A DNA stretch of 62,240 nt from Candidatus Omnitrophota bacterium (GCA_042571405.1 JBHPHU010000004.1:1-62240), one strand, 5' to 3'. Shown: positions 2,822 to 62,044, numbered from the stretch's first letter. Notes: generated by a model from the sequence alone, not told the origin. Numbers and translations are program-made.

Positions 2822-4201
2822 CAAGGTAACCCCCATCAGGTATTTATCAATACTCTTTGCGCAGTTTCGACCTTCTGAAATAGCCCATACCACTAGCGAC
2901 TGACCGCGCCTCATATCTCCTGCTGAAAAAACTTTGTCAACTGATGTCATATAATCTTTGTTTGTCTCTACATTACCTTTTTTGTCCAATCGAACACCTA
3001 GATCTGTAATTAATCCTTTTTTCTCGGGATGTACAAAACCTGCGGCAAGGATTACCAGATCTGCTTCTATTTCTATTTTCTTTCCATCCTGTATACATAA
3101 AAGTTTCTTAACCTTGCCGCCTTTTCCAATGAATCTTTCAGTATTTACTGACCAGTGTCGCTCGCATCCTTCTTCATGTGAGCTCGAAGTTTTTAGAAGA
3201 CTCGGGTATCCAGGCCATCTCATTTCTTTGGTTCTTTCCAGAGGGGGTCTGGGTAAAACCTCTATCTGCGTAACACTCTTGGCCCCTTGTCTGCAAGCAG
3301 TACCCACGCAATCAGACCCTGTATCCCCGCCGCCAATTACTATAACACGCTTATTTTTTGCATCAACAAGTTTATTATTCTGAATTTTTACTCCTGAAAC
3401 TCTTTTATTTGACTGTACAAGATAATCCATGGCAAAATATATACCTTCCAGTTCCCTTCCTTTTATCTTAAGGTCTCTAGGAACACGGGAACCACCTGCT
3501 AAGCACACTGCATCAAACTCTGTTAAAAGCCCCTTAGCTGGATAACCTGGCCCCACATCTATACCTGTCTTAAAAACGATGCCTTCCTTCTTCCATATAT
3601 TAATACGTCTGTCTATAAGATGTTTTTCGAGTTTAAAATCTGGAATGCCATAACGCAGTATCCCGCCTGGTTTATCATCGCGTTCAAAGACAGTTATGTT
3701 ATGGCCGGCTCTATTAAGCTGTGCTGCGCAGGATAGGCCTGCCGGACCTGAACCTATAACAGCTATTCTTTTACCTGTCCTTTTTTTTATCGGTCTTGGT
3801 TTAATCAGACCTTTATTAAAACCGAATTCTACAACTGCAAGTTCATTGTCACGGATAGCCACAGCGTCATTATTTAAACCCAACACGCATGCATATTCGC
3901 ATAATGCAGGACATACCCTGCCTGTTATCTCTGGAATATTATTTGTAGCTTCCAGTAACACAAGAGCTCTTTTCCAGTTACCATGAAACATGTAATCATT
4001 CCATTCCGGGATATAGTTTCCTATAGGGCAAGCCCAATGACAAAAAGGTGTTGCGCAGTCCATGCAACGAGAAGCCTGTTCCTGCGACTCTTTCTCATTG
4101 TGCAATCGAGAAACTGCTTTAAAATCTTTGATACGCTCGCAGATATTTCTCTCTTTCCCGTTTTGCCGCGCAATTTTTAAAAAACCTCTTAAATCACCCA
4201 T
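2810..4201 (-). CDS. gltD: glutamate synthase (NADPH) small subunit
   Basis: 463 aa. N-terminal Cys cluster (CMDCATPFCHWACP), FAD/NAD Rossmann motifs (IAVIGSGPAGL, VIVIGGGDTGSD). 8-nt overlap with gltB. Confidence 0.9.
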   Translation of the reverse strand: MGDLRGFLKIARQNGKERNICERIKDFKAVSRLHNEKESQEQASRCMDCATPFCHWACPIGNYIPEWNDYMFHGNWKRALVLLEATNNIPEITGRVCPALCEYACVLGLNNDAVAIRDNELAVVEFGFNKGLIKPRPIKKRTGKRIAVIGSGPAGLSCAAQLNRAGHNITVFERDDKPGGILRYGIPDFKLEKHLIDRRINIWKKEGIVFKTGIDVGPGYPAKGLLTEFDAVCLAGGSRVPRDLKIKGRELEGIYFAMDYLVQSNKRVSGVKIQNNKLVDAKNKRVIVIGGGDTGSDCVGTACRQGAKSVTQIEVLPRPPLERTKEMRWPGYPSLLKTSSSHEEGCERHWSVNTERFIGKGGKVKKLLCIQDGKKIEIEADLVILAAGFVHPEKKGLITDLGVRLDKKGNVETNKDYMTSVDKVFSAGDMRRGQSLVVWAISEGRNCAKSIDKYLMGVTLPTS

Positions 4202-49494: not shown

Positions 49495-51006
49495 TTACCC
49501 CTTTCTGTTCTCAGATTGATCTTTTACGGTAAAATAAAATGTCGTGCCTTCTCCCATCTTGGACTCAACCCATATCTTCCCGCCATTATTCTCTATTATC
49601 TTTTTTACTATGGTAAGGCCCGCGCCTGTTCCTTCGTGGTCTTCTCTTTTGCCTAACCTCTGGAAAATTTTGAACACTTTGTCAAAATACTGCTCCTCTA
49701 TGCCTGAGCCATTATCCTTTACATAAAATTCATAAAAACCGTTTTTTTCTATACACCCTATTTCTACATGAGGCTGCTTCTTATCCGTGAACTTTATAGA
49801 GTTAGAGATCAGGTTAAGAAAAACCTCTGCCAATCTTACGCGGTCACAAGAAAGTCTTGGCAACTTATCCCGGACTATTATGTCGGCCTTCTTTTCATGT
49901 ATCGCGTATTCCAGCCTCATTTTCACCTCATCTATAAGATCACCTATCTCAACTACCTCGACAGGGTTTTTTCTTCTGTCAACGCGGGATATCTCTAAAA
50001 GATCTTCGATGAGATTCTGCATTGTTGAAGCATTCACCCGTATCCGTTCAATATAATGCCTGCCCTTATCATCCAGCTTATCTCCGTAACGCATCTCCAA
50101 AAATTTAGAAAAAGCGTCTACGGTTCTTAATGGCTCCTTTAAATCGTGCGATATTGTATAAGTAAACTCATCTAATTCTTTATAGGCAGCCTCTAGTTTA
50201 CGTCCCTTTAGTTCTGCCGTTTCAACAGCCTGTTTTTCTTTCTGTATGTAGCGGTTTAAATCATCTGACATCTTATTAAACGACTCGGCAAGCTTGCCTA
50301 TCTCATCTCTCGCCCCCACTTTTATCCTATAGGAAAGATCTCCTTTGGATATCTCCTGCGTCCCTTTTAAGAGCCTGTTAATAGGCGCGGACAATGCCTT
50401 GCCCATAAAAAAGGCCGCTAAAAAACAAAAAATTATCCCTATAAATATGCTGAACCACATTATTTTTTGGCTATTTTTTGCAATAATAAGCATATTTATA
50501 TCAGATGCCCTGATCTTAGCCCTGATATCTTTGAACATCCCATCTAATCTATCGCTAGCCGCCTTAGCTGCAGCAATAGCAATATGTTCCATGTCAAAAG
50601 AACTGGCGCCTGATGGATCATATTCAAATTCACTGCTATAAGTACTGATTGCTACTTTAAAAAGCTTGGCAGTCTTTATAAATTCATTCACGGACTCTTT
50701 CTTTTGTGCATCAATGCCGCCTTTCAAATCCATAGATTCTTTAAGTACCTTATTCATGGCCAATATAGCCAAAGAAATATCAATTTCATGGTTTCTAGTA
50801 TAGCTAAAAAAGATATCTTTGGCGTATAAAAAATTATCCCTTATAGAATGCACCTTATCCGAGATAGGTCTTTTATGCACTATCATATCATATAGATTTG
50901 CGATAATCTTGTGCGTGCTTACTAAAGACACGGCGCACACAATGATCATAATTATGATCATTATTAATACAGTTAACCTGCGAATAGACCCGAATGATAA
51001 AAACAT
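49495..51006 (-). CDS. HAMP-domain sensor histidine kinase
   Basis: 503 aa. Two TM helices, HAMP, H-box SHDLKEPL, HATPase. Confidence 0.85.
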   Translation of the reverse strand: MFLSFGSIRRLTVLIMIIIMIIVCAVSLVSTHKIIANLYDMIVHKRPISDKVHSIRDNFLYAKDIFFSYTRNHEIDISLAILAMNKVLKESMDLKGGIDAQKKESVNEFIKTAKLFKVAISTYSSEFEYDPSGASSFDMEHIAIAAAKAASDRLDGMFKDIRAKIRASDINMLIIAKNSQKIMWFSIFIGIIFCFLAAFFMGKALSAPINRLLKGTQEISKGDLSYRIKVGARDEIGKLAESFNKMSDDLNRYIQKEKQAVETAELKGRKLEAAYKELDEFTYTISHDLKEPLRTVDAFSKFLEMRYGDKLDDKGRHYIERIRVNASTMQNLIEDLLEISRVDRRKNPVEVVEIGDLIDEVKMRLEYAIHEKKADIIVRDKLPRLSCDRVRLAEVFLNLISNSIKFTDKKQPHVEIGCIEKNGFYEFYVKDNGSGIEEQYFDKVFKIFQRLGKREDHEGTGAGLTIVKKIIENNGGKIWVESKMGEGTTFYFTVKDQSENRKG

Positions 51007-51023
51007 AATCCACCTGTTACTAT

Positions 51024-51620
51024 TTAACGCAATAATTGTTCGGCCAAAATATCCATATTTATCCCCACTGTCATGGCGCCAATAACATGTTTGGTCTGCG
51101 GATCAATGACAGGTATGGAAGCATGGGCTAAATAGTCTTGTGTGCTGTCATCAAAATAAACTTCGCTTATAAAAATAGCTCCTTTGCCGCCAGCAAAACA
51201 CTTAATAAATTTATCCTCATCCCCCTGCCAATAATCCGTAGTTTTCTTTGTCTCTCCTACGATACAACCCTGTTTATCCATAACAAATATCTCGGAATAA
51301 AGGCCCGCGCCCTTTTCTTCGAATTCCTTTAGGTAATCAGCGCAAGGATTATCAATAAATCCGTTTACCCATTCATCCATGTCTTTTGATCCCTGCCATC
51401 TATTATCTAACTGTATTATCTCTTCCAAAGATTTTTCAGTTTCTATATTAGCCTTTTGTACCGCGTTAACTATTATTGGATTGTTCGCCAAAACTACGAA
51501 TTCTTGCTTTGCCATACGTTTGACAAGGGCCCTTAAAGCATCTTCATTTGCCCAAGCCAGGTTTATCAGTGTTAAAAAAACAACGCCTGCCACGAAAAAA
51601 GATACTATTTTTTTTACCAT
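51024..51620 (-). CDS. secreted Cache/PDC-like sensor-domain protein
   Basis: 198 aa. Signal peptide. The fold assignment is tentative. Confidence 0.5.
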   Translation of the reverse strand: MVKKIVSFFVAGVVFLTLINLAWANEDALRALVKRMAKQEFVVLANNPIIVNAVQKANIETEKSLEEIIQLDNRWQGSKDMDEWVNGFIDNPCADYLKEFEEKGAGLYSEIFVMDKQGCIVGETKKTTDYWQGDEDKFIKCFAGGKGAIFISEVYFDDSTQDYLAHASIPVIDPQTKHVIGAMTVGINMDILAEQLLR

Positions 51621-51623
51621 TTA

Positions 51624-52499
51624 TCATTCCCCCCATTCCAGCGTCAACATCTCACCCACATCCCCTGCGCCATAAAAAGGCTGGGATAACTCAGGATCAT
51701 GCTGTCGAGCCGCCATCTCTTGACTGGATACTCCGAACTGGTAACTTTTACCCGGAACAAATTGGATATCATCCGGATTCCCTGTATTTAGAAAACGGCT
51801 GAACTCCATAGTCCACCTGCCATCAGACCATATGCCTTTTGCCTTGATGTCTGCGCGGCTTCCTGAGGGGGTCCTGTTTTCATAATTCGGGATCTCATCT
51901 CCCTCATACTCTATAAATAGAACATCTTTATAAGCTGTCGTTCCACTATCTCCTAATCTCTCTAAATACATAATGTTGCCGGTCTTAGTGGTCACTTCTA
52001 TTGATTTTGAGCGTTTAGTTTTGCCTAATTTCTGCATCTTATCATCTGCAAAACCTACGGGATCCGTCCTGTTCGCTTTCCAAAACCATATATCCGCCAT
52101 ATAAGATTCGTCAGAATACACGCTTAAATCTACTGGATACGCTTCCATATTCCATTTAAAAATAAACGTATCTTCTCTTAACATCCCAACCTTATACATC
52201 TCTTCATGTTTGTCCCACACCCAATACTTATGTTTCCTTGACTCATCCGGGTCAGGGAATGTAACCAAAAAGAAAATTTCCTTATCAGTATAAGCTGCCT
52301 TCATTGTTATATCAATGCCCGTAATATTATCATGGGTGACTATTGCCTGTGGCTTCTCCCACAGAGGCTCATCTGCATTCCCATCGATTACCGGAGGTAA
52401 GTCTATTTTTTCAGCGATTACGCTTTGGTCCGCATAGGAAATCCCATTTATAACCAAACATGCTAATAGCATCAACGTAAAAATTATTTTCTTTTTCAT
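51624..52499 (-). CDS. secreted DOMON/EB_dh-like (ethylbenzene-dehydrogenase gamma-type, CBM9-like) domain protein
   Basis: 291 aa. Signal peptide; IDGNADEPLWEKPQ...KAAYTDKEIFFLVTFPD pattern. Assigned from memory. Confidence 0.5.
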   Translation of the reverse strand: MKKKIIFTLMLLACLVINGISYADQSVIAEKIDLPPVIDGNADEPLWEKPQAIVTHDNITGIDITMKAAYTDKEIFFLVTFPDPDESRKHKYWVWDKHEEMYKVGMLREDTFIFKWNMEAYPVDLSVYSDESYMADIWFWKANRTDPVGFADDKMQKLGKTKRSKSIEVTTKTGNIMYLERLGDSGTTAYKDVLFIEYEGDEIPNYENRTPSGSRADIKAKGIWSDGRWTMEFSRFLNTGNPDDIQFVPGKSYQFGVSSQEMAARQHDPELSQPFYGAGDVGEMLTLEWGE

Positions 52500-52570
52500 A
52501 ACTTTCTCTCCTTATTGTCAGCATAAAAACCAAAGATCAAACTTAGTTCTCCCAACAGCTTTTTTAAATA

Positions 52571-52960
52571 CTAATTGTTTTCCTGTTTCGGCTGCAAAGC
52601 CTTTTCTATTTTGACGATAAGCCCTTCTTGATCCATCGGCTTCGCGAGATAACCTACTACTCCTTTTTTATAGGCCCTGTTCTTATCTTCATCTCGATCT
52701 AACGCGGAAAATATAATAATAGGGATGGTTTTGCCAAAAGGATCTTGATTTAACATATCGCAAACCTCGATGCCTCCTATCCCGGGCATAACAAGGTCCA
52801 GAAGTATCACATCCGGCCTAAAACTGCCGACTTTGGATAAAATCTCTTTTGGATCCGACAGGGTCAAAACTTCATACTTGCCTGTCCTTTCTAAATTCAA
52901 TTTTACTATTGTAAGAAAATCCAGTTCGTCGTCAACAACCAATATCTTTTTCTTAGACAT
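52571..52960 (-). CDS. single-domain response regulator
   Basis: 129 aa. ILVVDDE...VILLDLVMPG. Confidence 0.85.
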   Translation of the reverse strand: MSKKKILVVDDELDFLTIVKLNLERTGKYEVLTLSDPKEILSKVGSFRPDVILLDLVMPGIGGIEVCDMLNQDPFGKTIPIIIFSALDRDEDKNRAYKKGVVGYLAKPMDQEGLIVKIEKALQPKQENN

Positions 52961-53057
52961 TTAACCCCTCTTTAGATCTTTAAAGCAATAATAAAGCATA
53001 CCATATCAAGCTATAAATACAAGGGGAGGCGAGTCATGGAGAAAAATTTTAAAAAAT

Positions 53058-54644
53058 CTATCTCTTGGGCGAAAGAACTTTTTCTAACTTAGCGACAAGG
53101 GCATTTATTTCTATAGGCTTTATAAGATAATCTTTTACTCCTGCCCTATACGCCCTGTCCTTATCTATATCGTTATCTACTGCGGAAAGTATAATAATAG
53201 GGATGGATTTGCCGAGTGGGTCGTTGCTTAGCTTCTCGCAACAATCATGCCCGCCTACTATCGGCATAAGTATATCCAATAATATCACATCCGGCTTAAA
53301 CCTATTCACCTCTGAGATAATATCCTTTGCGCTTGGCAAAATTAACACCTGATAGTCGTGTATGGTTTCCAAATTTAACTTTGCAATCTTGAGAAAATCT
53401 ACCTCATCATCAACTATCATCACTTTTGTCTTTATGTCGCCTGCGGCTTGAGGTATTCTCAGAGCTATAATAAACCTCGTGCCCTTACCAACCTCGCTTT
53501 CTACATCAATAAATCCCTTATGCATAGCGATTATCTTCTTAGTAACCGACAATCCTAAACCACTTTGTTTGCCGGGTCCTTTCGTACTAAAGAACGGGTC
53601 AAAGATCTTCTTCAGGTTTTCTGCGGTAATACCTGAGCCTGTGTCTTCTATTTCTACGACTACGACCTTTCCCCTAGCCCCAAAATAATCCCTTGTTCTC
53701 TCATATGCCTCATCTTCTAAGCTGTCCAGTTGCTTTACATAACTGCGGATAGACAGTGTTCCCTGGCCTGGCATAGCATGAATTGCGTTCAGAAATATAT
53801 TCACAAAGACTTGTTCCATTTTCCCTTTGTCCACTAAAACCTCTGGCAAATTTTTTTGGAGATCTGTAATGATTTCTATCTTCCCTTTATGGGGCCTATG
53901 GCAGATTAAAGCTGATGAAGCTTCTATTATTGAATTGATATCTTGTTTACGGATTTCCAACTTTGTTTCTCTAGAAAAATCTACGAGAGAGCGCGTAATC
54001 TTGTCGGCTCTGTGGACATTGCTCTTCATCATATTGAAAACTTCGCGGATATCTTTCTTTGAAGATAATTTGCTCTCTAAATAGTTGACATCCTGGATCA
54101 ATATTCCTAACAGATTCTTGACTTCATGAGCTACATCACTGGCCAACTGTCCTACAACAGAAAGTTTTTCGGCCTGGACAAGCTGCTCGTAAGTCTCCAG
54201 CAGTGTAGTTTGAGCTTTTTCCAATTTTTCTTCCGCTATCCTGCGCCTGTTAATGTCTTTTATGACCCCTATGGTTCCTAAAAATCTTTTCTCTTCCCCG
54301 GTAGATTTTTCCCACTTTGCAGAAAAATGCAGCTCAGTATAGTGATAAGCCGCTGAAACGCTTCCCTGATTGTTTATTACCAGCTTCATCTCAAGACACT
54401 TAGGCGCTCCTTCAAAAACCGATTTCTCCTTTTTATCTTTTAGAAGACCATAATACCCAATGCTTTCACGGTCGTCTGGATGCACTATCTCCCCAAAATG
54501 CTTCCCGATAAGTTCCTGTGGATTATAGCCCAATTCTCTTATGGCATCACTGACGAAAGTGAATCTTCCGTTAGGATCAAATTCATATATTATATCCGGA
54601 ATTATTTTGGTAAGAATTTTATACTTTTCTTCATTTTGCTTCAC
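53058..54644 (-). CDS. hybrid sensor kinase (PAS-HisKA-HATPase-REC)
   Basis: 528 aa. H-box SDVAHEVKNLL. C-terminal receiver VMIVDDE...VILLDILMP. Confidence 0.85.
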   Translation of the reverse strand: MKQNEEKYKILTKIIPDIIYEFDPNGRFTFVSDAIRELGYNPQELIGKHFGEIVHPDDRESIGYYGLLKDKKEKSVFEGAPKCLEMKLVINNQGSVSAAYHYTELHFSAKWEKSTGEEKRFLGTIGVIKDINRRRIAEEKLEKAQTTLLETYEQLVQAEKLSVVGQLASDVAHEVKNLLGILIQDVNYLESKLSSKKDIREVFNMMKSNVHRADKITRSLVDFSRETKLEIRKQDINSIIEASSALICHRPHKGKIEIITDLQKNLPEVLVDKGKMEQVFVNIFLNAIHAMPGQGTLSIRSYVKQLDSLEDEAYERTRDYFGARGKVVVVEIEDTGSGITAENLKKIFDPFFSTKGPGKQSGLGLSVTKKIIAMHKGFIDVESEVGKGTRFIIALRIPQAAGDIKTKVMIVDDEVDFLKIAKLNLETIHDYQVLILPSAKDIISEVNRFKPDVILLDILMPIVGGHDCCEKLSNDPLGKSIPIIILSAVDNDIDKDRAYRAGVKDYLIKPIEINALVAKLEKVLSPKR

Positions 54645-54662: not shown

Positions 54663-55409
54663 TTATACACTTATATTGGTTCTTTTACTGAAACGATATT
54701 GTGAAGGAGTAAGATTTGTGACCCTCTTAAATATCTTCATAAAAGACGCCGGGTTCCTATACCCTGCTCTATAGGCAATCTGTGTAATGTTAAAATTAGT
54801 CTTTTCTAACATGTCTTTGGCAATTTCTATTTTTAATTCTATCTTATACCTGGCAAAGCCTTTGCCTGTTTTCTTCTTAAATACCCTGCTTAAATATTTA
54901 GGGCTTAAAAACAGCTCTTTGGAAACATCTCTTAAGGTCAATGGTTTATTACAATTCCTTCTAATGAATCTTTGAGCCCATATAACCTTGCCTTCTCTAT
55001 TATCAATGCCTGATTTATCAAAATCCCTTTGCTCGCCTAGAAATCTCTCGAATATCTCCCTGATCTTTCTGACATCAAACGGTTTTTCGACATATTCGTC
55101 CGCGTCCGAACGCAGCGCTTCGACTACTATATCCTTAGAACTATACCCCGTGAGAAGAATGACTTTATGTTTTGGATTTATCTTCTTTATCTCTTTTATC
55201 AGCTCGATCCCTGTTAAACCAGGCATCATCATGTCTACTACTATAAGATCTATATCATGAGGATGACTTAAAATATTCAACGCCTCTTGGCCATCCGCAG
55301 CAAGCACTATTCTGTATTCATCATCAAAACTATGGATAAAACTATCCCTGACTCTCTTATCATCATCCACTACTAAAATTTTTTCCTTAAAAACTTTTTC
55401 GTTTGTCAT
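54663..55409 (-). CDS. response regulator with AraC-type HTH output
   Basis: Start at MTNEKVFKEKILVVDDD. The C-terminal domain has the dual AraC HTH (ITQIAYRAGYRNPASFMKIFKRVTNLTPSQYR). Confidence 0.85.
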   Translation of the reverse strand: MTNEKVFKEKILVVDDDKRVRDSFIHSFDDEYRIVLAADGQEALNILSHPHDIDLIVVDMMMPGLTGIELIKEIKKINPKHKVILLTGYSSKDIVVEALRSDADEYVEKPFDVRKIREIFERFLGEQRDFDKSGIDNREGKVIWAQRFIRRNCNKPLTLRDVSKELFLSPKYLSRVFKKKTGKGFARYKIELKIEIAKDMLEKTNFNITQIAYRAGYRNPASFMKIFKRVTNLTPSQYRFSKRTNISV

Positions 55410-55465
55410 ATGTGTTAAGTATAAGAATAAAGCAAAAAAGGTCAATCGGCAAAATACACTTTCTG

Positions 55466-57235
55466 CTATCCTTTTTCCACCTCTAAGGGCAATTTCATGA
55501 CAACAGTAGTTCCTTTGCCTACTTGGCTTTCCAGTATGATGGTTCCGCCATGCTGCTCAATAATACTGCGGCTTATAGCAAGTCCCAATCCCATGCCGCC
55601 TTTTTCAATAGCATAAAACGACTCAAATATTTTCTCTAACGCGTCAGATGGTATGCCCTTCCCGGTATCTATAATCCTCACCTCTGCGCTGGTAGAGTTT
55701 GAGGACAACAAAATTACAATCGAACCTCCGGCCGGCATTGCATTAATAGCATTGATAATTACATTCATAAAAACCTGTTTTAATTTTTGAGGATCATGTC
55801 TGATATAAAGATTATCTGTCTGCGGACTATATCTAACATTAATTCTTTTTTCAATCAATCGCTCGCTCATTGTCTCCAATATGCCGCTTATTAATTCTTT
55901 CAGATCTATCTTTTCCATCAGCAGCGCGGAATTAGAAGAAAAATTGGATATCCCCTTGAGCATATGTTCCCAACGCTCGATCTCTTCCGGCATCAACTTA
56001 CTAAATCTATCTATGAATTCTCTGTCTTTATGTTTTTGCGGAAATAGCTGAACAAATGTTTTTATCGAAACTAGCGAATTCTTTAGCTCATGAGTTATCC
56101 AGCTGGCTGCTTCTCCGATTGCTGAAAGCTGCTCACGCGATTTTGCCTTTTTTAATCTTTCGCTCATATTATTAAAGGATCTGACCAGCCCTCCGATCTC
56201 ATCGCGTCTCTTTATCTCAATCTTATGGCCAAAATCACCCTCAGCCACTCTCTTTATTCTGGACGCCAGGGTCTTTATAGGCATAATCAATAACTTGGCC
56301 ATGAATATGCTTACCGCGATAGCTATTAATTCACTTAAAATTATGATCATCCACGATTGCATTTTCATTACCTTGGAAAATAAATAGGCTTCGTCCTGTT
56401 CTTGTCTCAGGACAAAACCCCATCCTAAATGTGAAACAGGCGCATAAGAAACGATCCACCTTTTTCCTGTTTTCTCCAGTGACTCAATCGACCCTGCCTG
56501 ATTCTTTAAAACTGACTGGATATACGGCAGGTGGTTAAGATCCTCGTTCTTCAAGACCCGCTTCTTATCCTGATGGGCTATCAATATGCCGTTATTTGAG
56601 ACTAAAAATGCCCTGCCGGTCGCTTCTATCTGTATATTATCTATAATGCCCCATATTCCTCTTAAATTAATGTCACCTATTAATGCGCCCACTACCTTGC
56701 CCATCTTTCTGATTGGTACGGCCATGGTTAGATAAGGCGTATGGTTATTTAAAATCATGACATTAGAAGCATAATCCTGGCCTTTGTTTATCTTTTCCAA
56801 TGCCTCTTTGAGATGAGGCCAGCTTGATTTCCTGCCCAATTCAGAACTGGCCAGTTCTCCGCCCAATAGATCTATCGAAGACACCCGCATAAAAACCGGG
56901 CGATTCAAGACCAGCTCTACCAGTACTGTTTCCTGCTTCCATGGCGCGGGATACACCACTTCAAGCATAGCCGCGGTAGTCTTCAATATGCCCTCGGGCC
57001 CTTTGATAAAGAGTTTTATCTCTTCTGCCGCCCTTACAGCTATCTCTTTATGATTATTCAATACTGAATTCCTTACAGCCTCCTGAGAGGTGCTTATTAA
57101 TAAAAATCCAAGAAGGACTACGGGAACAGTGACAAGCAGAAGAAGCATAGCCGCGATCTTTACCCATAGTCTGCGGTAAAATAAACGCAGCAAAAAAATT
57201 TTTATTTTAGACAATTTACGCATTACTCTATTCAT
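55466..57235 (-). CDS. sensor histidine kinase (periplasmic Cache-like domain, HAMP, HisKA, HATPase)
   Basis: 589 aa. ATGA overlap with the ABC exporter stop. H-box SWITHELKNSL. Confidence 0.85.
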   Translation of the reverse strand: MNRVMRKLSKIKIFLLRLFYRRLWVKIAAMLLLLVTVPVVLLGFLLISTSQEAVRNSVLNNHKEIAVRAAEEIKLFIKGPEGILKTTAAMLEVVYPAPWKQETVLVELVLNRPVFMRVSSIDLLGGELASSELGRKSSWPHLKEALEKINKGQDYASNVMILNNHTPYLTMAVPIRKMGKVVGALIGDINLRGIWGIIDNIQIEATGRAFLVSNNGILIAHQDKKRVLKNEDLNHLPYIQSVLKNQAGSIESLEKTGKRWIVSYAPVSHLGWGFVLRQEQDEAYLFSKVMKMQSWMIIILSELIAIAVSIFMAKLLIMPIKTLASRIKRVAEGDFGHKIEIKRRDEIGGLVRSFNNMSERLKKAKSREQLSAIGEAASWITHELKNSLVSIKTFVQLFPQKHKDREFIDRFSKLMPEEIERWEHMLKGISNFSSNSALLMEKIDLKELISGILETMSERLIEKRINVRYSPQTDNLYIRHDPQKLKQVFMNVIINAINAMPAGGSIVILLSSNSTSAEVRIIDTGKGIPSDALEKIFESFYAIEKGGMGLGLAISRSIIEQHGGTIILESQVGKGTTVVMKLPLEVEKG

Positions 57236-58935
57236 ATCCTCTGATAATTTTCTTTTTTATCCAAAAGCTCAGCAGGCTTTATGGTCTTTCTTATTTTGTT
57301 ATCTTCGACAAACATTATCTTATCCGCATAATCTATAGCGGCTAACCTGTGAGAAATAATGAAAGTAGTGCGGCCGGACATTAAATTCCTGAAGGCGCGT
57401 TCAATAATCAAACGCTCTGTCTCTGAATCTACGCTGGAGGTTGCCTCATCCAGTATCAAGATATCCGGGTCCCTTAATATCGCCCTGGCAATAGAGATCC
57501 TTTGTCTTTGGCCATAAGATAACTTGATCCCGCGTTCCCCTATCTCAGAATCATAGCCGCCCGCAAGGCATATGATAAACTCATGCGCCGCGGCTAATTT
57601 AGCCACATCTATAATATCCTGCATAGAGGCATCTGGTTTACCATAAAGAATATTCTCTTTTATGGTCCCGCTAAATAAATAATCGTCCTGCAGGACTATG
57701 CCTATTTTAGAACGATACGATTCCAATTCCAGATCTTTAAGATTATGCCCGTCTATAAATATTGCTCCTTTTGTAGGTTCATAAAACCGTAAAAGTAAAT
57801 TTATCAAGGTAGTTTTACCGGCTCCGCTTTTACCTGCTATAGCGACTATTTCTGATCCTTTTACATCAAAATCAACATCAGAAAGAATTTCTTTGCCGCC
57901 ATCGTAACTAAAACTGACATTTCTAAAACTTATATTACCCTTTACTGTATCAAGGAAAACAGGCCGCGAGGATTGTTTTATCTGTGGTTCTTCGACCAAT
58001 ATGCCTCTGATGCGCTCCATAGAAGCGGCTGCCTCCTGATAATAACTATTGATGATAACCATTTTGATAATAGGAAAAAATAACATGCCCAGATAGGAAT
58101 AAAAAGCCATCAATGTACCTGTAGTGATGCGCCCTGAAAAAACCGCGTTTACCCCGAACCAGACAAGCGTAATCAGGCCTAATGAACTTATAAATTCAGA
58201 GAACATCCACAGCATTATCTCCAGGCTATGACTCCCCATAGAAAGCTTGAATATCTCTTTCTGCTTAAAGTTGAATTTATCGCTTTCATGCGCTTCCCTG
58301 CTAAACCCGGCAACAACGCGTATCCCTCTGAATACCTCATTTAATCTTGTAGTAAGTTCTGCGTATCTTTCCCGGACTGCCATATGTCTTTCTTTAAGTT
58401 TTGGCGTAAGCTTAAAAAATGTTACGCCGAAAATAGGCAGATATACAATAGATAACAGCGTGAGCCTCCAATCCAAAGCAAATAAAATACAAAGGACAAA
58501 AATGATATTTAAAAAAGAGTAGATAAAATCAATGGCGCCTCCGAATAAAAACTGTCTTATACTGTCCGTATCTCCGATAATCCCGGATATCATCTTTCCC
58601 GTAGAGGTATCTTCTATATACTTAACGGATAATCTCTGTAAATGCGCATAGATCTTTCTACGCAAATCATATACTACCTTTTCACCGACAAAAGACGCCA
58701 TATACTCACGCATGTATCCAAAATACGACTTCAGGATAAACACAAGGACAAGACCTATTGTAATTATATTAAGTAAGTATATGTCTTTTTTTACTACTAT
58801 ATCATCTATTACTATCTTTATCACCCATGGAAAGGCCAACCCAAGCAGATTGGCCATTAAGATAGCTATAAAGGCAAAGGATATTTTTCTCTTATAAGGC
58901 TTTAAAAGATACAAAAACTCTTTTAGGTTTGTCAA
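57232..58935 (-). CDS. ABC exporter, fused permease/ATPase (MsbA-like)
   Basis: 567 aa. Six-TM domain, Walker A GKSGAGKTT, signature LSYGQRQR, Walker B ILILDEA. TTG start with an AAGGAG RBS; TTGA overlap with the rSAM stop. Confidence 0.9.
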   Translation of the reverse strand: MTNLKEFLYLLKPYKRKISFAFIAILMANLLGLAFPWVIKIVIDDIVVKKDIYLLNIITIGLVLVFILKSYFGYMREYMASFVGEKVVYDLRRKIYAHLQRLSVKYIEDTSTGKMISGIIGDTDSIRQFLFGGAIDFIYSFLNIIFVLCILFALDWRLTLLSIVYLPIFGVTFFKLTPKLKERHMAVRERYAELTTRLNEVFRGIRVVAGFSREAHESDKFNFKQKEIFKLSMGSHSLEIMLWMFSEFISSLGLITLVWFGVNAVFSGRITTGTLMAFYSYLGMLFFPIIKMVIINSYYQEAAASMERIRGILVEEPQIKQSSRPVFLDTVKGNISFRNVSFSYDGGKEILSDVDFDVKGSEIVAIAGKSGAGKTTLINLLLRFYEPTKGAIFIDGHNLKDLELESYRSKIGIVLQDDYLFSGTIKENILYGKPDASMQDIIDVAKLAAAHEFIICLAGGYDSEIGERGIKLSYGQRQRISIARAILRDPDILILDEATSSVDSETERLIIERAFRNLMSGRTTFIISHRLAAIDYADKIMFVEDNKIRKTIKPAELLDKKENYQRI

Positions 58936-60272
58936 GCTACAGGCTCCTTTGCTTGTCGAGTCTTGTCGTATTCCAGTTTGATCAGCTCAGGCATAACATT
59001 TTCAAAATAATCTTTTTTACATGATAGATCTTCAAAATTTTTGTTTTCCAGGTATGAAAAAAACCTGCATCCTCCCTGGCACATCGGGACATACGGGCAA
59101 TCCTTGGGGCATTTATCCCAGGCATTGATATTCAAGAATTTTTCGAAATTTTCATTCAATTCGTCTCTCCGCACATTGCCTATGGAAAACTCGGGATACC
59201 CCAATAAAGAATTACATTTATAGATTACGCCTTCAGGATCAATGGTTATGCCTCCGTCCTCCATAATCAAAGGGCACGCATTGATGGCCAGGCCCGTATT
59301 GATATTGATCCCGCGCTTGATCAAATCCTTTTTAATAGCGACTGTTTCGTTGAATAATCCGTCTTTTTCAACAAAACTCAGGCATTCGCCAAGTTCAATC
59401 GCGCCGGGATTATCCTTTGAGCCTAATCTAGGTACTATAGGCGAAAAATCAATTCTCGATAGCCTGTAAAGAAGATCTTCTTTTTCTAAATAATCCAGAA
59501 GTCTTGGAATGCTGTCTAAATTGTCCCGGTCAAAATTTCCTGCAAGGCCTACCTCTGTCTTATTAATTATACTCTTGATATTATTGATAATAACATCAAA
59601 GCTCGGCTTTCCATCCGCAAATGGCCTTTTTTTATCATGTTCATCTTTGCACCCATCAATGGTGACACGGACACCTTTTAAGCCAACTGTTAAAAACTTG
59701 TCTATCAGGTCCGCGTTTAAAAGACTCCCGTTAGTAATAATCGAGAAGTGAAATTCTGACCCGCTTTTCTCTGCCCATTTCTTCATGTGCCACGAGATAT
59801 CATAAATGGGGACAATGTTCAATAACGGCTCGCCGCCGTAATAGACTAAATGAATCCGTTTTATGCCTCTTTTCTCAGCCCTGTTGATCAACCATTTAAC
59901 TATTAAACTACTTGTATCTTTATCCAAAAATATACTATCCCTGACTGATTCCTCAAAACAATACACGCACCTAAAATTACAACTATAGGTGGTCAGGATC
60001 GTTGTCTCAAGGCTTAAGCCCTGAGTCTCATTCTTGAGTTGTCTAAAAAAATCCTTTAATTTAGCCTCTTCCTCATTATCATCTTCTACAATAATTCCGT
60101 TTTCTTTCAAGGCATTGAGATTTTCTCTAACCTGAGGGCCTGAAATATTATCTAATTCCTGCTTGAACTCTCTGCTTACCTTTATAAGCGCCTGCGTACG
60201 CGCATTAAAAAGCAAATAGTCTCCCTTATCTGGATAGTCCTCTACCCATACATTAAATCTGGATAATTTCAT
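58932..60272 (-). CDS. radical SAM/SPASM-domain peptide-modifying enzyme
   Basis: 446 aa. CNFRCVYC (CX3CX2C) and a C-terminal auxiliary cluster region CNSLLGYPEFSIG...CPKDCPYVPMCQGGCRF...C. A roughly 90-aa N-terminal extension precedes the rSAM core. Confidence 0.85.
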   Translation of the reverse strand: MKLSRFNVWVEDYPDKGDYLLFNARTQALIKVSREFKQELDNISGPQVRENLNALKENGIIVEDDNEEEAKLKDFFRQLKNETQGLSLETTILTTYSCNFRCVYCFEESVRDSIFLDKDTSSLIVKWLINRAEKRGIKRIHLVYYGGEPLLNIVPIYDISWHMKKWAEKSGSEFHFSIITNGSLLNADLIDKFLTVGLKGVRVTIDGCKDEHDKKRPFADGKPSFDVIINNIKSIINKTEVGLAGNFDRDNLDSIPRLLDYLEKEDLLYRLSRIDFSPIVPRLGSKDNPGAIELGECLSFVEKDGLFNETVAIKKDLIKRGININTGLAINACPLIMEDGGITIDPEGVIYKCNSLLGYPEFSIGNVRRDELNENFEKFLNINAWDKCPKDCPYVPMCQGGCRFFSYLENKNFEDLSCKKDYFENVMPELIKLEYDKTRQAKEPVA

Positions 60273-60360
60273 AATTATTCCTTTTTATTTGCAGCAGCTC
60301 TGGTCGGCCGCCCAGAGCATTTACTGCAAAATCTAGTCCATCAAACTTGTTAATTGGTTT

Positions 60361-60456
60361 CTACTGTACTCTAAGACCATTGCTCCCTGGAGGCCAACAG
60401 CAGTTACGCGGACTTATCTTAGATAGGTTATCTGAGCCCTTTTTTATAATCTCCAT
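60361..60456 (-). CDS. 31-aa candidate RiPP precursor peptide MEIIKKGSDNLSKISPRNCCWPPGSNGLRVQ
   Basis: Absent from the ORF track (<60 aa). The ATG lies 7 nt after a perfect AGGAGG (60469-60464) and 4 nt after the SBP stop, directly upstream of the rSAM/SPASM gene. Confidence 0.6.
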   Translation of the reverse strand: MEIIKKGSDNLSKISPRNCCWPPGSNGLRVQ

Positions 60457-60460
60457 TTTA

Positions 60461-62044
60461 TCACCTCCTTTCTATGTGCCAATCTTTCATTGTATAATAA
60501 GGCATATTAACATTAAAAAATTCATCCACATTCTCAAACCTATTAGAAGCTGCTTGAAAATAAAAAGGAAAATATAAAAAACATGCTGGTTGATCTCCAT
60601 AAATCAATTCATGAATCTCTTCGTAAAACTCTTGCCTCTTCTCTTTATCTTGGCTAACTTCTCCTAAATCAACCAACCTGTCTATTTCTTCGTTCTTATA
60701 CGTCCATAATTTATTAGCAATTCCTTTAGACCTCTTAGAGCACCAAGGTTCGACTGTTTGATCAGGGTCCATTCCAGCTAGAAATAACATTAACTGTGCC
60801 TGGAGTTTGTTCTGTTCTAAAAATTCACTAGTTAGTACGTCCTCGTGATCGTAAGAAACTACTCTAATTTTTATGCCAATGTTCTGAAGCTCCTGTCTAA
60901 TAGCTAAGATTATCCTGTTATAAATATCGCTTCTTGAATCGACTAATACTCTTATCTCTAATTCCTTTCCTTGTTTTTCTAAGATCCCGTCATTGTCTAT
61001 ATCATACCAGCCTGCCTGATCCAATAATTCTAAAGACTTTTCAGGATTATATTCAAATGTTTTAACGTCAGGATTAAACCCTATTGAATTTGAAGAAAAA
61101 GGACCGTTGCATTCTAACCCATAACCAAAAGCCGCTTTTTTAATAAGCTCTTTTCTATCTATGCCATATGCGATTGCCTGTCTTATGTTTTTATCAGCTA
61201 AAATAGGGTCACTCATGTTATATGAGATAGCATAATAACAATCAATGGGAAAGGCATGCGACTTAAACGAAGGGTCATCCTTTATTATCTCATAATCCTC
61301 TCTTTCAATAAGCTCAACATAATCTACCTCACCGCGCATAAAAGCAATCCATGCGTCACGAGAATTAGAATATGCCCTGATAATAACCTTATCCAGATAC
61401 GGCCTTCCCTCATAATAATCAGGATTATACTCCAGGGTGATCATGTTATCTTCATCCCATTGCTTAAACCTGAAAGGGCCTGTGCCAATAGGATAATGAT
61501 TAAAATCAGCTTTATCTAAATCTGTTTGTTCTAATATATGCCTGGGCATTACATATCTAAGCATTCTATAGAGAAAGGGTACTGATGATTTGTTAAGCAC
61601 GACTTTAAAAGTATATCTATCCACTACTTCAAATCTCTCTACTATCTGATACTGTAACTTAAAAGGAGAATTAACTTTGGGATCGATGATCTTATCGTAC
61701 GTAAATTTCACATCCTCTGCCGTACACTCTACTCCATCGTGAAACTTTATACCTTGTCTAAGATAAAATGTATAGACTAAGCCGCTCTTGGATATGTCCC
61801 AACGCTCCGCAAGATCCGGCTCTATCTCACCTGTTGAGTTTAGTCTCACAAGTCCGTTAAAAATTATCTGCACAAGTGACGCTGAAACACTGTAAGAAGT
61901 AAGAATAGGATTTATTATGGTAGGCTTATTACGCGTACCCCAGTTCAGAGTTCCGCCATAAGACTTTGTGGCAGGAGAAACAGCTTCAGCCTCCGGAACA
62001 ACAAAAGGTAACATAATTGAGAATACAAATAGTAATATTCGCAC
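60461..62044 (-). CDS. family-5 (Opp/Dpp-type) solute-binding protein, no cognate permease in the operon
   Basis: 527 aa. Signal peptide (GTG start) and SBP_bac_5-like sequence throughout. Confidence 0.85.
   Translation of the reverse strand: MRILLFVFSIMLPFVVPEAEAVSPATKSYGGTLNWGTRNKPTIINPILTSYSVSASLVQIIFNGLVRLNSTGEIEPDLAERWDISKSGLVYTFYLRQGIKFHDGVECTAEDVKFTYDKIIDPKVNSPFKLQYQIVERFEVVDRYTFKVVLNKSSVPFLYRMLRYVMPRHILEQTDLDKADFNHYPIGTGPFRFKQWDEDNMITLEYNPDYYEGRPYLDKVIIRAYSNSRDAWIAFMRGEVDYVELIEREDYEIIKDDPSFKSHAFPIDCYYAISYNMSDPILADKNIRQAIAYGIDRKELIKKAAFGYGLECNGPFSSNSIGFNPDVKTFEYNPEKSLELLDQAGWYDIDNDGILEKQGKELEIRVLVDSRSDIYNRIILAIRQELQNIGIKIRVVSYDHEDVLTSEFLEQNKLQAQLMLFLAGMDPDQTVEPWCSKRSKGIANKLWTYKNEEIDRLVDLGEVSQDKEKRQEFYEEIHELIYGDQPACFLYFPFYFQAASNRFENVDEFFNVNMPYYTMKDWHIERR

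Follow-up and report, generated by a model that had tools for sequence, protein, structure and literature searches.

The window analysed here is a 62,240-nt stretch of DNA from a Candidatus Omnitrophota bacterium (GCA_042571405.1, JBHPHU010000004.1:1-62240). Close to one of its ends lies a minus-strand gene cassette, in which a very short ORF is placed between the genes for a solute-binding protein (SBP) and a radical SAM (rSAM) enzyme. The features of this cassette, in the direction of transcription, are the following.

60461..62044, minus strand: secreted family-5 SBP, Opp/App/NikA-like, 527 aa (PF00496, 298 bits)
60464..60469, minus strand: Shine-Dalgarno (SD) sequence AGGAGG, 7 nt before the peptide ATG and within the last SBP codons (E-R-R-stop)
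60361..60456, minus strand, stop codon included: predicted precursor peptide gene, 31 aa, MEIIKKGSDNLSKISPRNCCWPPGSNGLRVQ (conserved ORF in orthologous loci, dN/dS, 107-peptide consensus)
60284..60330, minus strand: conserved RNA stem-loop, UUGCAG..CUCUGG-GCGGCCGA-CCAGAG..CUGCAA, without a U tract (covariation, folding, covariance model)
58932..60272, minus strand: rSAM/SPASM peptide maturase with an RRE-like N-terminal domain, 446 aa (NCBIfam, PDB, AlphaFold, cysteine conservation)
57232..58935, minus strand: fused TMD-NBD ABC exporter, MsbA/HlyB-like, without a C39 peptidase domain (ABC_membrane and ABC_tran)
55466..57235, minus strand: sensor histidine kinase with periplasmic dCache_1, HAMP, HisKA and HATPase domains (Pfam)
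54663..55445, minus strand: response regulator with an AraC-type HTH output (Response_reg and HTH_18/HTH_AraC)

The short ORF had been proposed in an earlier note, made from this sequence alone, as an unannotated precursor gene for the rSAM/SPASM maturase downstream of it. All coordinates given there are confirmed on the minus strand. The spacing that was described, AGGAGG-N7-ATG with the start 4 nt after the SBP stop and the end 88 nt before the maturase, is likewise verified from the sequence. The AGGAGG (60469..60464) and the ATG (60456) are separated by the 7 nt TGATAAA, the SBP stop codon TGA occupies 60463..60461 and leaves 4 nt to the peptide ATG, and the 88-nt spacer lies between the ORF end at 60361 and the rSAM ATG at 60272.

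On the window sequence by itself, the ORF could have arisen by chance, since neither short ORFs nor SD-ATG pairs exceed the background frequency there. As many as 57 ORFs with 25 aa or more are found in 7.2 kb, and the arrangement AGGAGG-N5-9-ATG is found six times in the window versus 3.4 ± 1.9 expected, a count that is reached in 15 of 100 shuffles. Promoter-like matches (27 versus 25.5) and terminator-like matches (4 versus 4.2) are likewise at the background level, and the sole good promoter-like match overlaps the peptide ATG and is therefore uninformative. Searches of the window peptide against Pfam and NCBIfam gave no match, with none to the geopeptide profile TIGR04229 even at E ≤ 10. 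A chance ORF would have the ordinary statistics of the ORF and its SD in its favour. It is the comparative data, and not the window statistics, that make the peptide gene solid.

The maturase has more than 350 homologues at 52-78% identity, mostly in Candidatus Omnitrophota MAGs. A scan of GTDB representatives with an alignment of the maturase (a scan with a single sequence reached only relatives of ≤29% identity) identified a short ORF on the same strand directly upstream of the maturase in ~31 loci, which include members of Omnitrophota, Planctomycetota, Spirochaetota, Zixibacteria and Auribacterota. The ORF in these loci begins with M-E-[IV]-[IL]-x-x-G and contains an invariant Cys-Cys pair. 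Its frame, SD sequence and position are kept in every orthologous locus with sufficient flank. In all 18 close loci an SD, either GGAGG or GGGGG, precedes the ATG by 6-10 nt, and the ..ERR* ending of the SBP with the SD embedded in it recurs in several phyla. Further peptide loci were recovered from metagenome and Logan contigs, one of which (L243, MEIIKKGSDDLSKISPRGCCFPPGSNGLRNA) encodes a peptide almost identical to that of the window. A protein profile search, with a profile headed by a 44-aa family member, found 63 called members among 5.8 billion proteins, all of them unnamed or 'hypothetical'. The earlier note had named as a refutation that syntenic loci keep neither the reading frame nor the CCW motif; the opposite was found, as ~100 syntenic loci from several phyla conserve the frame and the Cys-Cys motif.

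The pattern of substitutions is that of a coding sequence. Pooled over 11 ungapped orthologues of 31 codons, dN/dS amounts to 0.20 for the ORF frame, compared with 0.88 and 1.57 when the frame is shifted. All but one of the 31 codons vary at the third position while the ORF frame stays open, and both other frames contain stops in every one of the 11 orthologues. Judged from these sequence comparisons, the peptide ORF is a real gene, and purifying selection acts on no frame but its own.

The association with the neighbouring genes was examined by a reciprocal scan, in which all GTDB representatives were searched for the peptide coding pattern alone, without use of the enzyme. Among the 76 matches, 33 are in-frame short ORFs of the family, and each of these is directly preceded by an SBP homologue. 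The maturase directly follows 29 of them, and the end of the locus cuts off two more; in the remaining two (L297 and L304) the SBP and the peptide are present with no maturase nearby, L304 being a truncated cassette, after which come unrelated genes on the opposite strand. Neither an SBP nor a maturase was found near the other 43 matches, which are out of frame, located inside long ORFs or interrupted. Synteny thus shows the gene to be tied to this maturase, to the SBP and to the sensor, the last of these from the locus comparisons described below.

The consensus derived from 107 unique peptides is MEIIKKGSD…P[LR]x-CC-[FWY]-P-x-G-[TS]…R. The N-terminal part consists of M1, E2, [IV]3, I4, [RK]5, K6, G7 (106 of 107 peptides), [ST]8 and D9, and the Cys pair is preceded by Pro at -3 and Leu or Arg at -2. 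Both cysteines are present in 106 of 107 peptides, the only exception at the second Cys being C-S-F in L166. They are followed by an aromatic residue (Phe in 64, Trp in 33, Tyr in 10), Pro (107/107), a variable residue, Gly (103/107) and Thr or Ser (99/107), with Arg at +10 in 77. About one third of the peptides were collected with a pattern that requires CC-aromatic-P-x-G, so these columns are somewhat inflated; the enzyme-anchored set of peptides agrees with the same picture. The proposal of a C-terminal core with Cys-Cys-Trp and Pro-Pro-Gly therefore holds for the Cys pair and the first Pro, which are invariant or nearly so, and for the almost invariant Gly, but W21 is one of three alternative aromatics and the second Pro is variable. 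The proposed division into leader and core also needs revision. A constrained core, C-C-[FWY]-P-x-G-[ST]...R, is present, but a simple split into a variable leader and a conserved core does not apply because MEIIKKGSD is conserved equally with it. No leader-cleavage motif (GG/GA or double-glycine) was found in the peptide, no C39 peptidase in the exporter, and no protease gene in the cassette.

The spacer between the peptide and the maturase contains a conserved RNA hairpin. Of its 13 pairs, 10 show compensatory double changes, and 94% of the alignment cells are paired, compared with 28-43% when the pairing is slid; none of 500 shuffles reaches the observed values. The window hairpin has a minimum free energy of -25.8 kcal/mol (z -2.9) and its loop GCGGCCGA is nearly invariant across the loci. 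A covariance model built for it finds only this spacer in the 62-kb window (59 bits) and 11 further loci of the close clade, always on the coding strand, and nothing credible among ~30 unrelated loci. An Rfam search of the spacer returned only noise (15 bits vs a gathering score of 41). The acidic-tail, spirochaete and Geobacter clades lack the hairpin, which is therefore a clade-specific addition. Its most plausible role is to govern transcript processing or stability between the precursor and the enzyme.

A short ORF with two adjacent Cys codons, placed directly before an enzyme gene and separated from it by a conserved stem-loop, could also be read as a regulatory leader, in which the tandem Cys codons and the hairpin form a cysteine-sensing attenuator of the maturase. 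We rejected this reading on several grounds. The constraint extends along the whole peptide (dN/dS 0.20), whereas an attenuator needs the regulatory codons only. The stop codon precedes the hairpin by ~31 nt, and a terminating ribosome would therefore not reach the hairpin. Finally, the peptide persists in clades that have no hairpin and in those where it follows the enzyme. Moreover, no U tract follows the hairpin, nor was an alternative antiterminator seen. Either a regulatory leader or a chance ORF is accordingly very improbable.

The adjacent enzyme has the features expected for modification of a short Cys-containing peptide. It matches PF04055, and its relatives match the SPASM profile TIGR04085. 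The top NCBIfam match of the window maturase is TIGR04280, which aligns over the full length (protein residues 1-434 to positions 1-424 of the 428 in the profile) with 310.8 bits, below the cutoff of 400; next are the maturases of the CefB, TIGR04463, Clo7bot, PapB and SCIFF types. All of these nearest families act on Cys-containing peptides. The CX3CX2C motif (C98/C102/C105) is invariant in 38 orthologues, and so are seven SPASM cysteines (C333, C353, C388, C392, C398, C402 and C418), which correspond to the motif for two auxiliary [4Fe-4S] clusters. In the AlphaFold model (pLDDT 91.4), residues 7-57 form a beta3-alpha3 unit of three strands and three helices (pLDDT ~95) with the topology of a PqqD-like RiPP recognition element (RRE). 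The closest sequence match in PDB is CteB, a SCIFF maturase that forms thioethers (5WGG, E 6e-23), which is also the best full-length fold match (E 9e-22, ~22% identity), followed by TigE, ChlB, anSME and SuiB. TigE, which we take to be a cyclopropyl synthase, is nearly as close in fold as CteB. On the predicted structure, the maturase thus has the CteB-like architecture of RRE, rSAM and SPASM domains, of the kind that acts on Cys-containing substrates. The assignment of the ORF as precursor for the downstream rSAM/SPASM maturase is supported by synteny, by the dN/dS value and by this enzyme architecture, and the peptide is very probably the genuine precursor of the adjacent enzyme.

An RRE-like N-terminus, a CX3CX2C core and a two-cluster SPASM domain are common to the window maturase and to CteB (acting on CteA, the SCIFF peptide or 'thermocellin'), PapB, Clo7bot and CefB. 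The window system also resembles SCIFF-type systems in having a short substrate peptide in which Cys is essential. CteA differs by having six Cys spread over 45 residues, versus two adjacent Cys in the window precursor, and SCIFF loci are without the SBP, TonB-dependent receptor (TBDR) and dCache kinase context of the window system. By analogy with the nearest characterised relatives, the likeliest chemistry would be thioether formation, with one or two cross-links from Cys to a residue further along the peptide, and the Ser/Thr that is conserved at the fifth position after the second Cys is a candidate acceptor. We consider the odds of a thioether product to be about even. The acceptor residue, and even the type of reaction, are uncertain because neither the aromatic residue nor Ser/Thr is universal across the wider superfamily: cores of the Geobacter type are without aromatics, and the distant single-Cys cores described below are without Ser/Thr. 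A universal Cys-x-aromatic cross-link motif, which the single-Cys C-x-W peptides had brought to mind, was dropped as a general rule because of these aromatic-free Geobacter cores.

The TIGR04280 match connects the window system with the curated geopeptide family of Geobacter and other Desulfuromonadales. Not only the window maturase but also the tested ones of another Omnitrophota locus (L094), of the spirochaete clade and of a distant clade (L104, L108 and L143) have TIGR04280 as the top match, with 247-327 bits versus the cutoff of 400. When the scan was seeded with the spirochaete and distant clades, it extended to loci in Geobacter, Geoanaerobacter, Trichlorobacter and Desulfuromonadaceae, where bona fide geopeptide maturases score 533-677 bits. 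The peptides encoded upstream of these enzymes include MAIEVLDEGVESTEMVSTCCTATSARS and MEIEVLNQGVEECQMVAACCSGGTSSTRR, the latter of which scores 35.1 bits and exceeds the TIGR04229 cutoff of 30. Four peptides of the Omnitrophota or spirochaete type match TIGR04229 below that cutoff, the best Omnitrophota score being 20.6 bits versus 35.1 for a Trichlorobacter peptide.

Geopeptides and the window peptide are similar in many respects. Both are ~27-31 aa long and begin with a hydrophobic strand, after which comes a conserved Gly. The Cys-Cys pair, invariant in both, is reached after ~17-19 residues, and the short tail behind it has an Arg close to the C-terminus. Both genes are located immediately upstream of the maturase. 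A TonB-dependent receptor and a periplasmic binding protein are encoded near the geopeptides as well, and a HAMP sensor kinase in some loci; it directly follows the maturase in two loci of the Geobacter type (L340 and L352). In contrast, the window maturase is only ~28% identical to bona fide members. The window core is C-C-aromatic-P-x-G-T/S, whereas in the Geobacter type C-C is followed by small Ser, Thr, Ala or Gly residues. The binder of the window system belongs to family 5 (PF00496) and is co-transcribed upstream of the peptide, whereas the geopeptide binder belongs to PF04392 and is encoded divergently, together with the TBDR. The dCache sensor and the ABC exporter belong to the window system. 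From the sub-threshold scores and the ~28% identity, the window system is a sister lineage of the curated geopeptide family and not a member of it by NCBI thresholds; this kind of system is therefore not wholly new.

The search of the accessible literature for geopeptide, TIGR04229 and TIGR04280 found no paper and no functional study, and the search for the present cassette found nothing; papers on Omnitrophota RiPPs held nothing specific, and those retrieved for the TBDR-binder-kinase combination nothing relevant. A more distant variant is encoded in loci of Nitrospirota, Nitrospinota and Syntrophobacterales, where a peptide of 21-25 aa is placed after the maturase and is followed by the SBP and the dCache kinase. 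This peptide has an MKLxVVKKG leader and, as in MKLQIVKKGDKSKQGKTLYCVWLV, a C-x-W core that contains its only Cys, and no match to TIGR04229 was obtained for the single-Cys peptides.

Comparison of the window proteins with the other loci by tblastn identified the SBP, the peptide, the rSAM enzyme and the dCache sensor as the invariant set across phyla. In the reciprocal scan, the SBP is always directly upstream of the peptide (33 of 33). The sensors retain dCache_1 and HAMP while their transmitter modules are swapped, with HisKA and an AraC-type response regulator, PAS-HisKA_3 and a LuxR/GerE response regulator, or hybrid kinases with a fused receiver as the variants. In the Omnitrophota clade, the response regulator conservedly follows the kinase; the true start of the one in the window is probably an internal ATG, ~36 nt after the listed TTG. 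An ABC exporter is encoded in the loci of the close clade, but several other clades have none. The window exporter matches peptidase-containing bacteriocin exporters only from their positions ~135-180.

Precursor, exporter, sensor kinase and response regulator occur together in the window locus and in relatives, which is the gene set of a peptide autoinducer circuit with a two-component system. A second rival reading is an antimicrobial peptide of the sactipeptide or ranthipeptide type, for which the ABC protein would provide export or immunity and the two-component system a nisin-like autoinduction. The closest characterised enzyme families do make sacti- and ranthipeptides, and the fused exporter shares one operon with the kinase/regulator pair. 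However, an immunity gene, a C39 peptidase and a double-glycine leader are all lacking. The whole peptide is conserved across phyla under purifying selection, whereas bacteriocin cores diversify fast, and the exporter is dispensable in many clades while the SBP and the sensor are not. In addition, a TBDR and an SBP encoded by the producer for its own product are foreign to bacteriocin loci. We regard a bacteriocin as quite improbable.

The long Omnitrophota contigs encode a TonB-dependent receptor immediately before the SBP and a second receiver protein downstream, and most loci of the Omnitrophota and Planctomycetota clade have such a receptor next to the cassette. It is missing from the spirochaete clade and from L098, the closest GTDB relative. 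No TBDR homologue was found elsewhere in the window, whose contig ends 196 nt upstream of the SBP, before the place where the gene would be expected. Neither a permease nor an ATPase of an importer was found within the 9-kb flanks of the long Omnitrophota contigs (three relatives). The closest solved relatives of the SBP are the oligopeptide binders 8efz and AppA (1xoc), and its sub-threshold matches include Opp4A, NikA (nickel, 206 bits) and CntA (staphylopine binder, 175 bits).

The list of parts in these loci resembles that of methanobactin operons, which encode the TBDR MbnT, the OppA-like binder MbnE and the exporter MbnM, with no inner-membrane importer known (PMC7558416). The main rival reading is therefore that the mature peptide is a RiPP metallophore, similar to a chalkophore or nickelophore, in which groups derived from the Cys pair would chelate the metal, the TBDR would take up the complex, the NikA/Opp-like protein would hold it, and the kinase and regulator would track metal status. 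Like the precursor MbnA, the small Cys-containing ribosomal peptide of the window has an Opp/App-like binder and an exporter encoded alongside it; a TBDR directly precedes the SBP in most relatives and also occurs in Geobacter-type loci. The sub-threshold NikA and CntA matches point in the same direction, as do the invariant vicinal cysteines, which are good soft-metal ligands.

On the other side, the nearest relatives of the enzyme use up the Cys thiol in a thioether. The maturase is a radical SAM enzyme and not of the MbnBC type, no MbnB/MbnC pair being found either in the cassette of the window or within 9 kb around the cassettes of three relatives, and the peptides have no sequence relationship. 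The control genes also differ, with a sigma/anti-sigma pair in methanobactin operons and the dCache kinase with its response regulator here; no metal-responsive regulator was seen in the 9-kb flanks. The invariant partners of the peptide are the SBP and the dCache sensor and not the TBDR, and the best solved SBP relatives bind oligopeptides. A metallophore is thus unlikely, and would be a radical-SAM-derived one if the reading were true.

Since the peptide travels with a periplasmic binding protein and a sensor kinase, the likeliest role of its product is that of a secreted signal. Sensing that depends on binding proteins is represented by LuxP-LuxQ and by chemoreception through DppA-Tap and NikA-Tar, and family-5 SBPs can double as sensor partners. 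Comparably, a permease-less periplasmic SBP here adjoins a membrane sensor with a periplasmic domain, but the putative ligand is a self-made peptide modified by a radical SAM enzyme. Across the clades, the set of uptake protein, binder and kinase is rebuilt around a pair of CC-peptide and rSAM enzyme from partly non-homologous parts and never includes an importer, which we read as periplasmic perception of the mature peptide.

By combining these observations, we propose that the ORF is the ribosomal precursor of a RiPP-type peptide, which would be translated from the strong SD within the last SBP codons. The conserved N-terminal strand MEIIKKGSD may be recognised by the maturase through its RRE-like domain, and the enzyme would then modify the C-C-[FWY]-P-x-G-[ST] core. 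The co-encoded ABC exporter, where present, would export the product, which in most relatives could re-enter the periplasm through the TonB-dependent receptor encoded just upstream of the SBP. There the orphan family-5 SBP would bind it for perception by the dCache histidine kinase, which would pass the signal to the AraC-type response regulator in an autoinducer-like or environment-probing peptide circuit. The hairpin probably sets a differential stability or processing of an abundant precursor message relative to the enzyme message. Translation in vivo, the chemistry, export and sensing are steps that we infer. For the reading as a whole, namely a RiPP precursor that is modified by the rSAM enzyme, exported and read in the periplasm by the SBP and the dCache kinase, we estimate a probability of roughly 0.6. 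The signalling role of the mature peptide, taken by itself, has in our view slightly less than an even chance.

A broader proposal, which we put forward tentatively, is a mode of peptide signalling in diderm bacteria in which a cross-linked peptide would be secreted, re-imported by a dedicated TBDR, and read by an orphan Opp-like SBP together with a dCache kinase. It would be widespread in Omnitrophota and Planctomycetota, with functional analogues in Geobacter and spirochaetes. If true, this would be an unusual route of peptide signalling for bacteria with an outer membrane.

The present analysis adds a well-populated and almost wholly unannotated precursor family, whose 107 unique peptides are unnamed or 'hypothetical' in public data, and ties it to a clade of rSAM maturases in Omnitrophota, a phylum of which little is understood and most members are uncultured. 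The family is also linked to the curated geopeptide system of Geobacter under a shared hypothesis, in which uptake across the outer membrane, a binder in the periplasm and a sensor kinase would together serve to read a self-made peptide. Gene callers miss the peptide gene or mis-extend across it, and the consensus and the hairpin model can be used to find more members.

The Shine-Dalgarno sequence of the gene for the 31-aa Cys-Cys peptide, a proposed RiPP-type precursor, is embedded in the gene for the family-5 solute-binding protein (SBP) directly upstream, and a conserved RNA stem-loop occupies the spacer that follows:

60461..60469, - strand, peptide Shine-Dalgarno within the final SBP codons (GAA AGG AGG TGA, read as ..Glu-Arg-Arg-stop)
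60284..60330, - strand, conserved RNA stem-loop between the peptide gene and the radical SAM/SPASM maturase gene

Since SBPs ending in ..ERR* are found repeatedly across phyla (related loci L081-L126), translational coupling to the peptide gene is suggested as a constraint on the SBP C-terminus. The stem-loop is limited to the close Omnitrophota clade, shows strong covariation and has a palindromic, almost invariant loop, GCGGCCGA; it has no U tract and no match in Rfam. The peptide gene is often absent from public gene calls (L241, L242, L243, L244), and the 485-aa maturase call in L242 runs upstream over the spacer and the hairpin. The gene calls of L245 and L246 do include the peptide gene, yet leave it unnamed.

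Most relatives in Omnitrophota and Planctomycetota encode a TonB-dependent receptor directly 5' of the SBP gene (L244 5303-7207, L245 5165-7039, L246 5267-7123). This position is not visible in the window because the contig stops (at 62240) only 196 nt upstream of the SBP gene, and no homologue of the receptor occurs elsewhere in the window. In bona fide loci of the Geobacter-type geopeptide family, a TonB-dependent receptor and a PF04392 (ABC_sub_bind) periplasmic protein are encoded together in a divergent operon (L348 357-3127, L340 453-3136, L342 474-3481, L352 507-3199), with a HAMP histidine kinase directly 3' of the maturase in L340 and L352. Their functional logic is the same as that of the window-type cassette, but the binder is non-homologous.

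A distant clade carries peptides of 21-25 aa encoded 3' of the maturase and followed by an SBP and a dCache kinase. These peptides have the same leader, MKLxVVKKG, but only one Cys, which sits in a C-x-W core, and none of them matches the geopeptide model TIGR04229. Their genes are located at:

L104 5416-5493, L106 3812-3889, L108 5378-5452
L110 5796-5867, L111 1853-1924
L121 5421-5486, L143 5405-5482

Two Planctomycetales loci contain the SBP and a typical CCWPPGT peptide with no maturase downstream (peptide genes at L297 2314-2418 and L304 4699-4797); in L304 the genes after the peptide are unrelated and on the opposite strand. The peptide ORF of L114 (~3860-3952) seems broken, reading MIIEIVEEGY-stop and then ..GPMMCCGLVVGSTGR in a different frame; its homologue in L178, MIIEIVEEGFQGQDKFGPMMCCAFIFGGTGGY, is intact. 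The break in L114 marks a pseudogene or else results from faulty assembly.

Immediately 3' of the cassette come additional genes for signalling proteins (window 49495..54644, - strand):

53058..54644, - strand, hybrid histidine kinase containing PAS and a fused receiver
52571..52960, - strand, stand-alone receiver
49495..51006, - strand, additional HAMP kinase

The relatives differ from the window in having a stand-alone receiver directly 3' of the AraC-type regulator.
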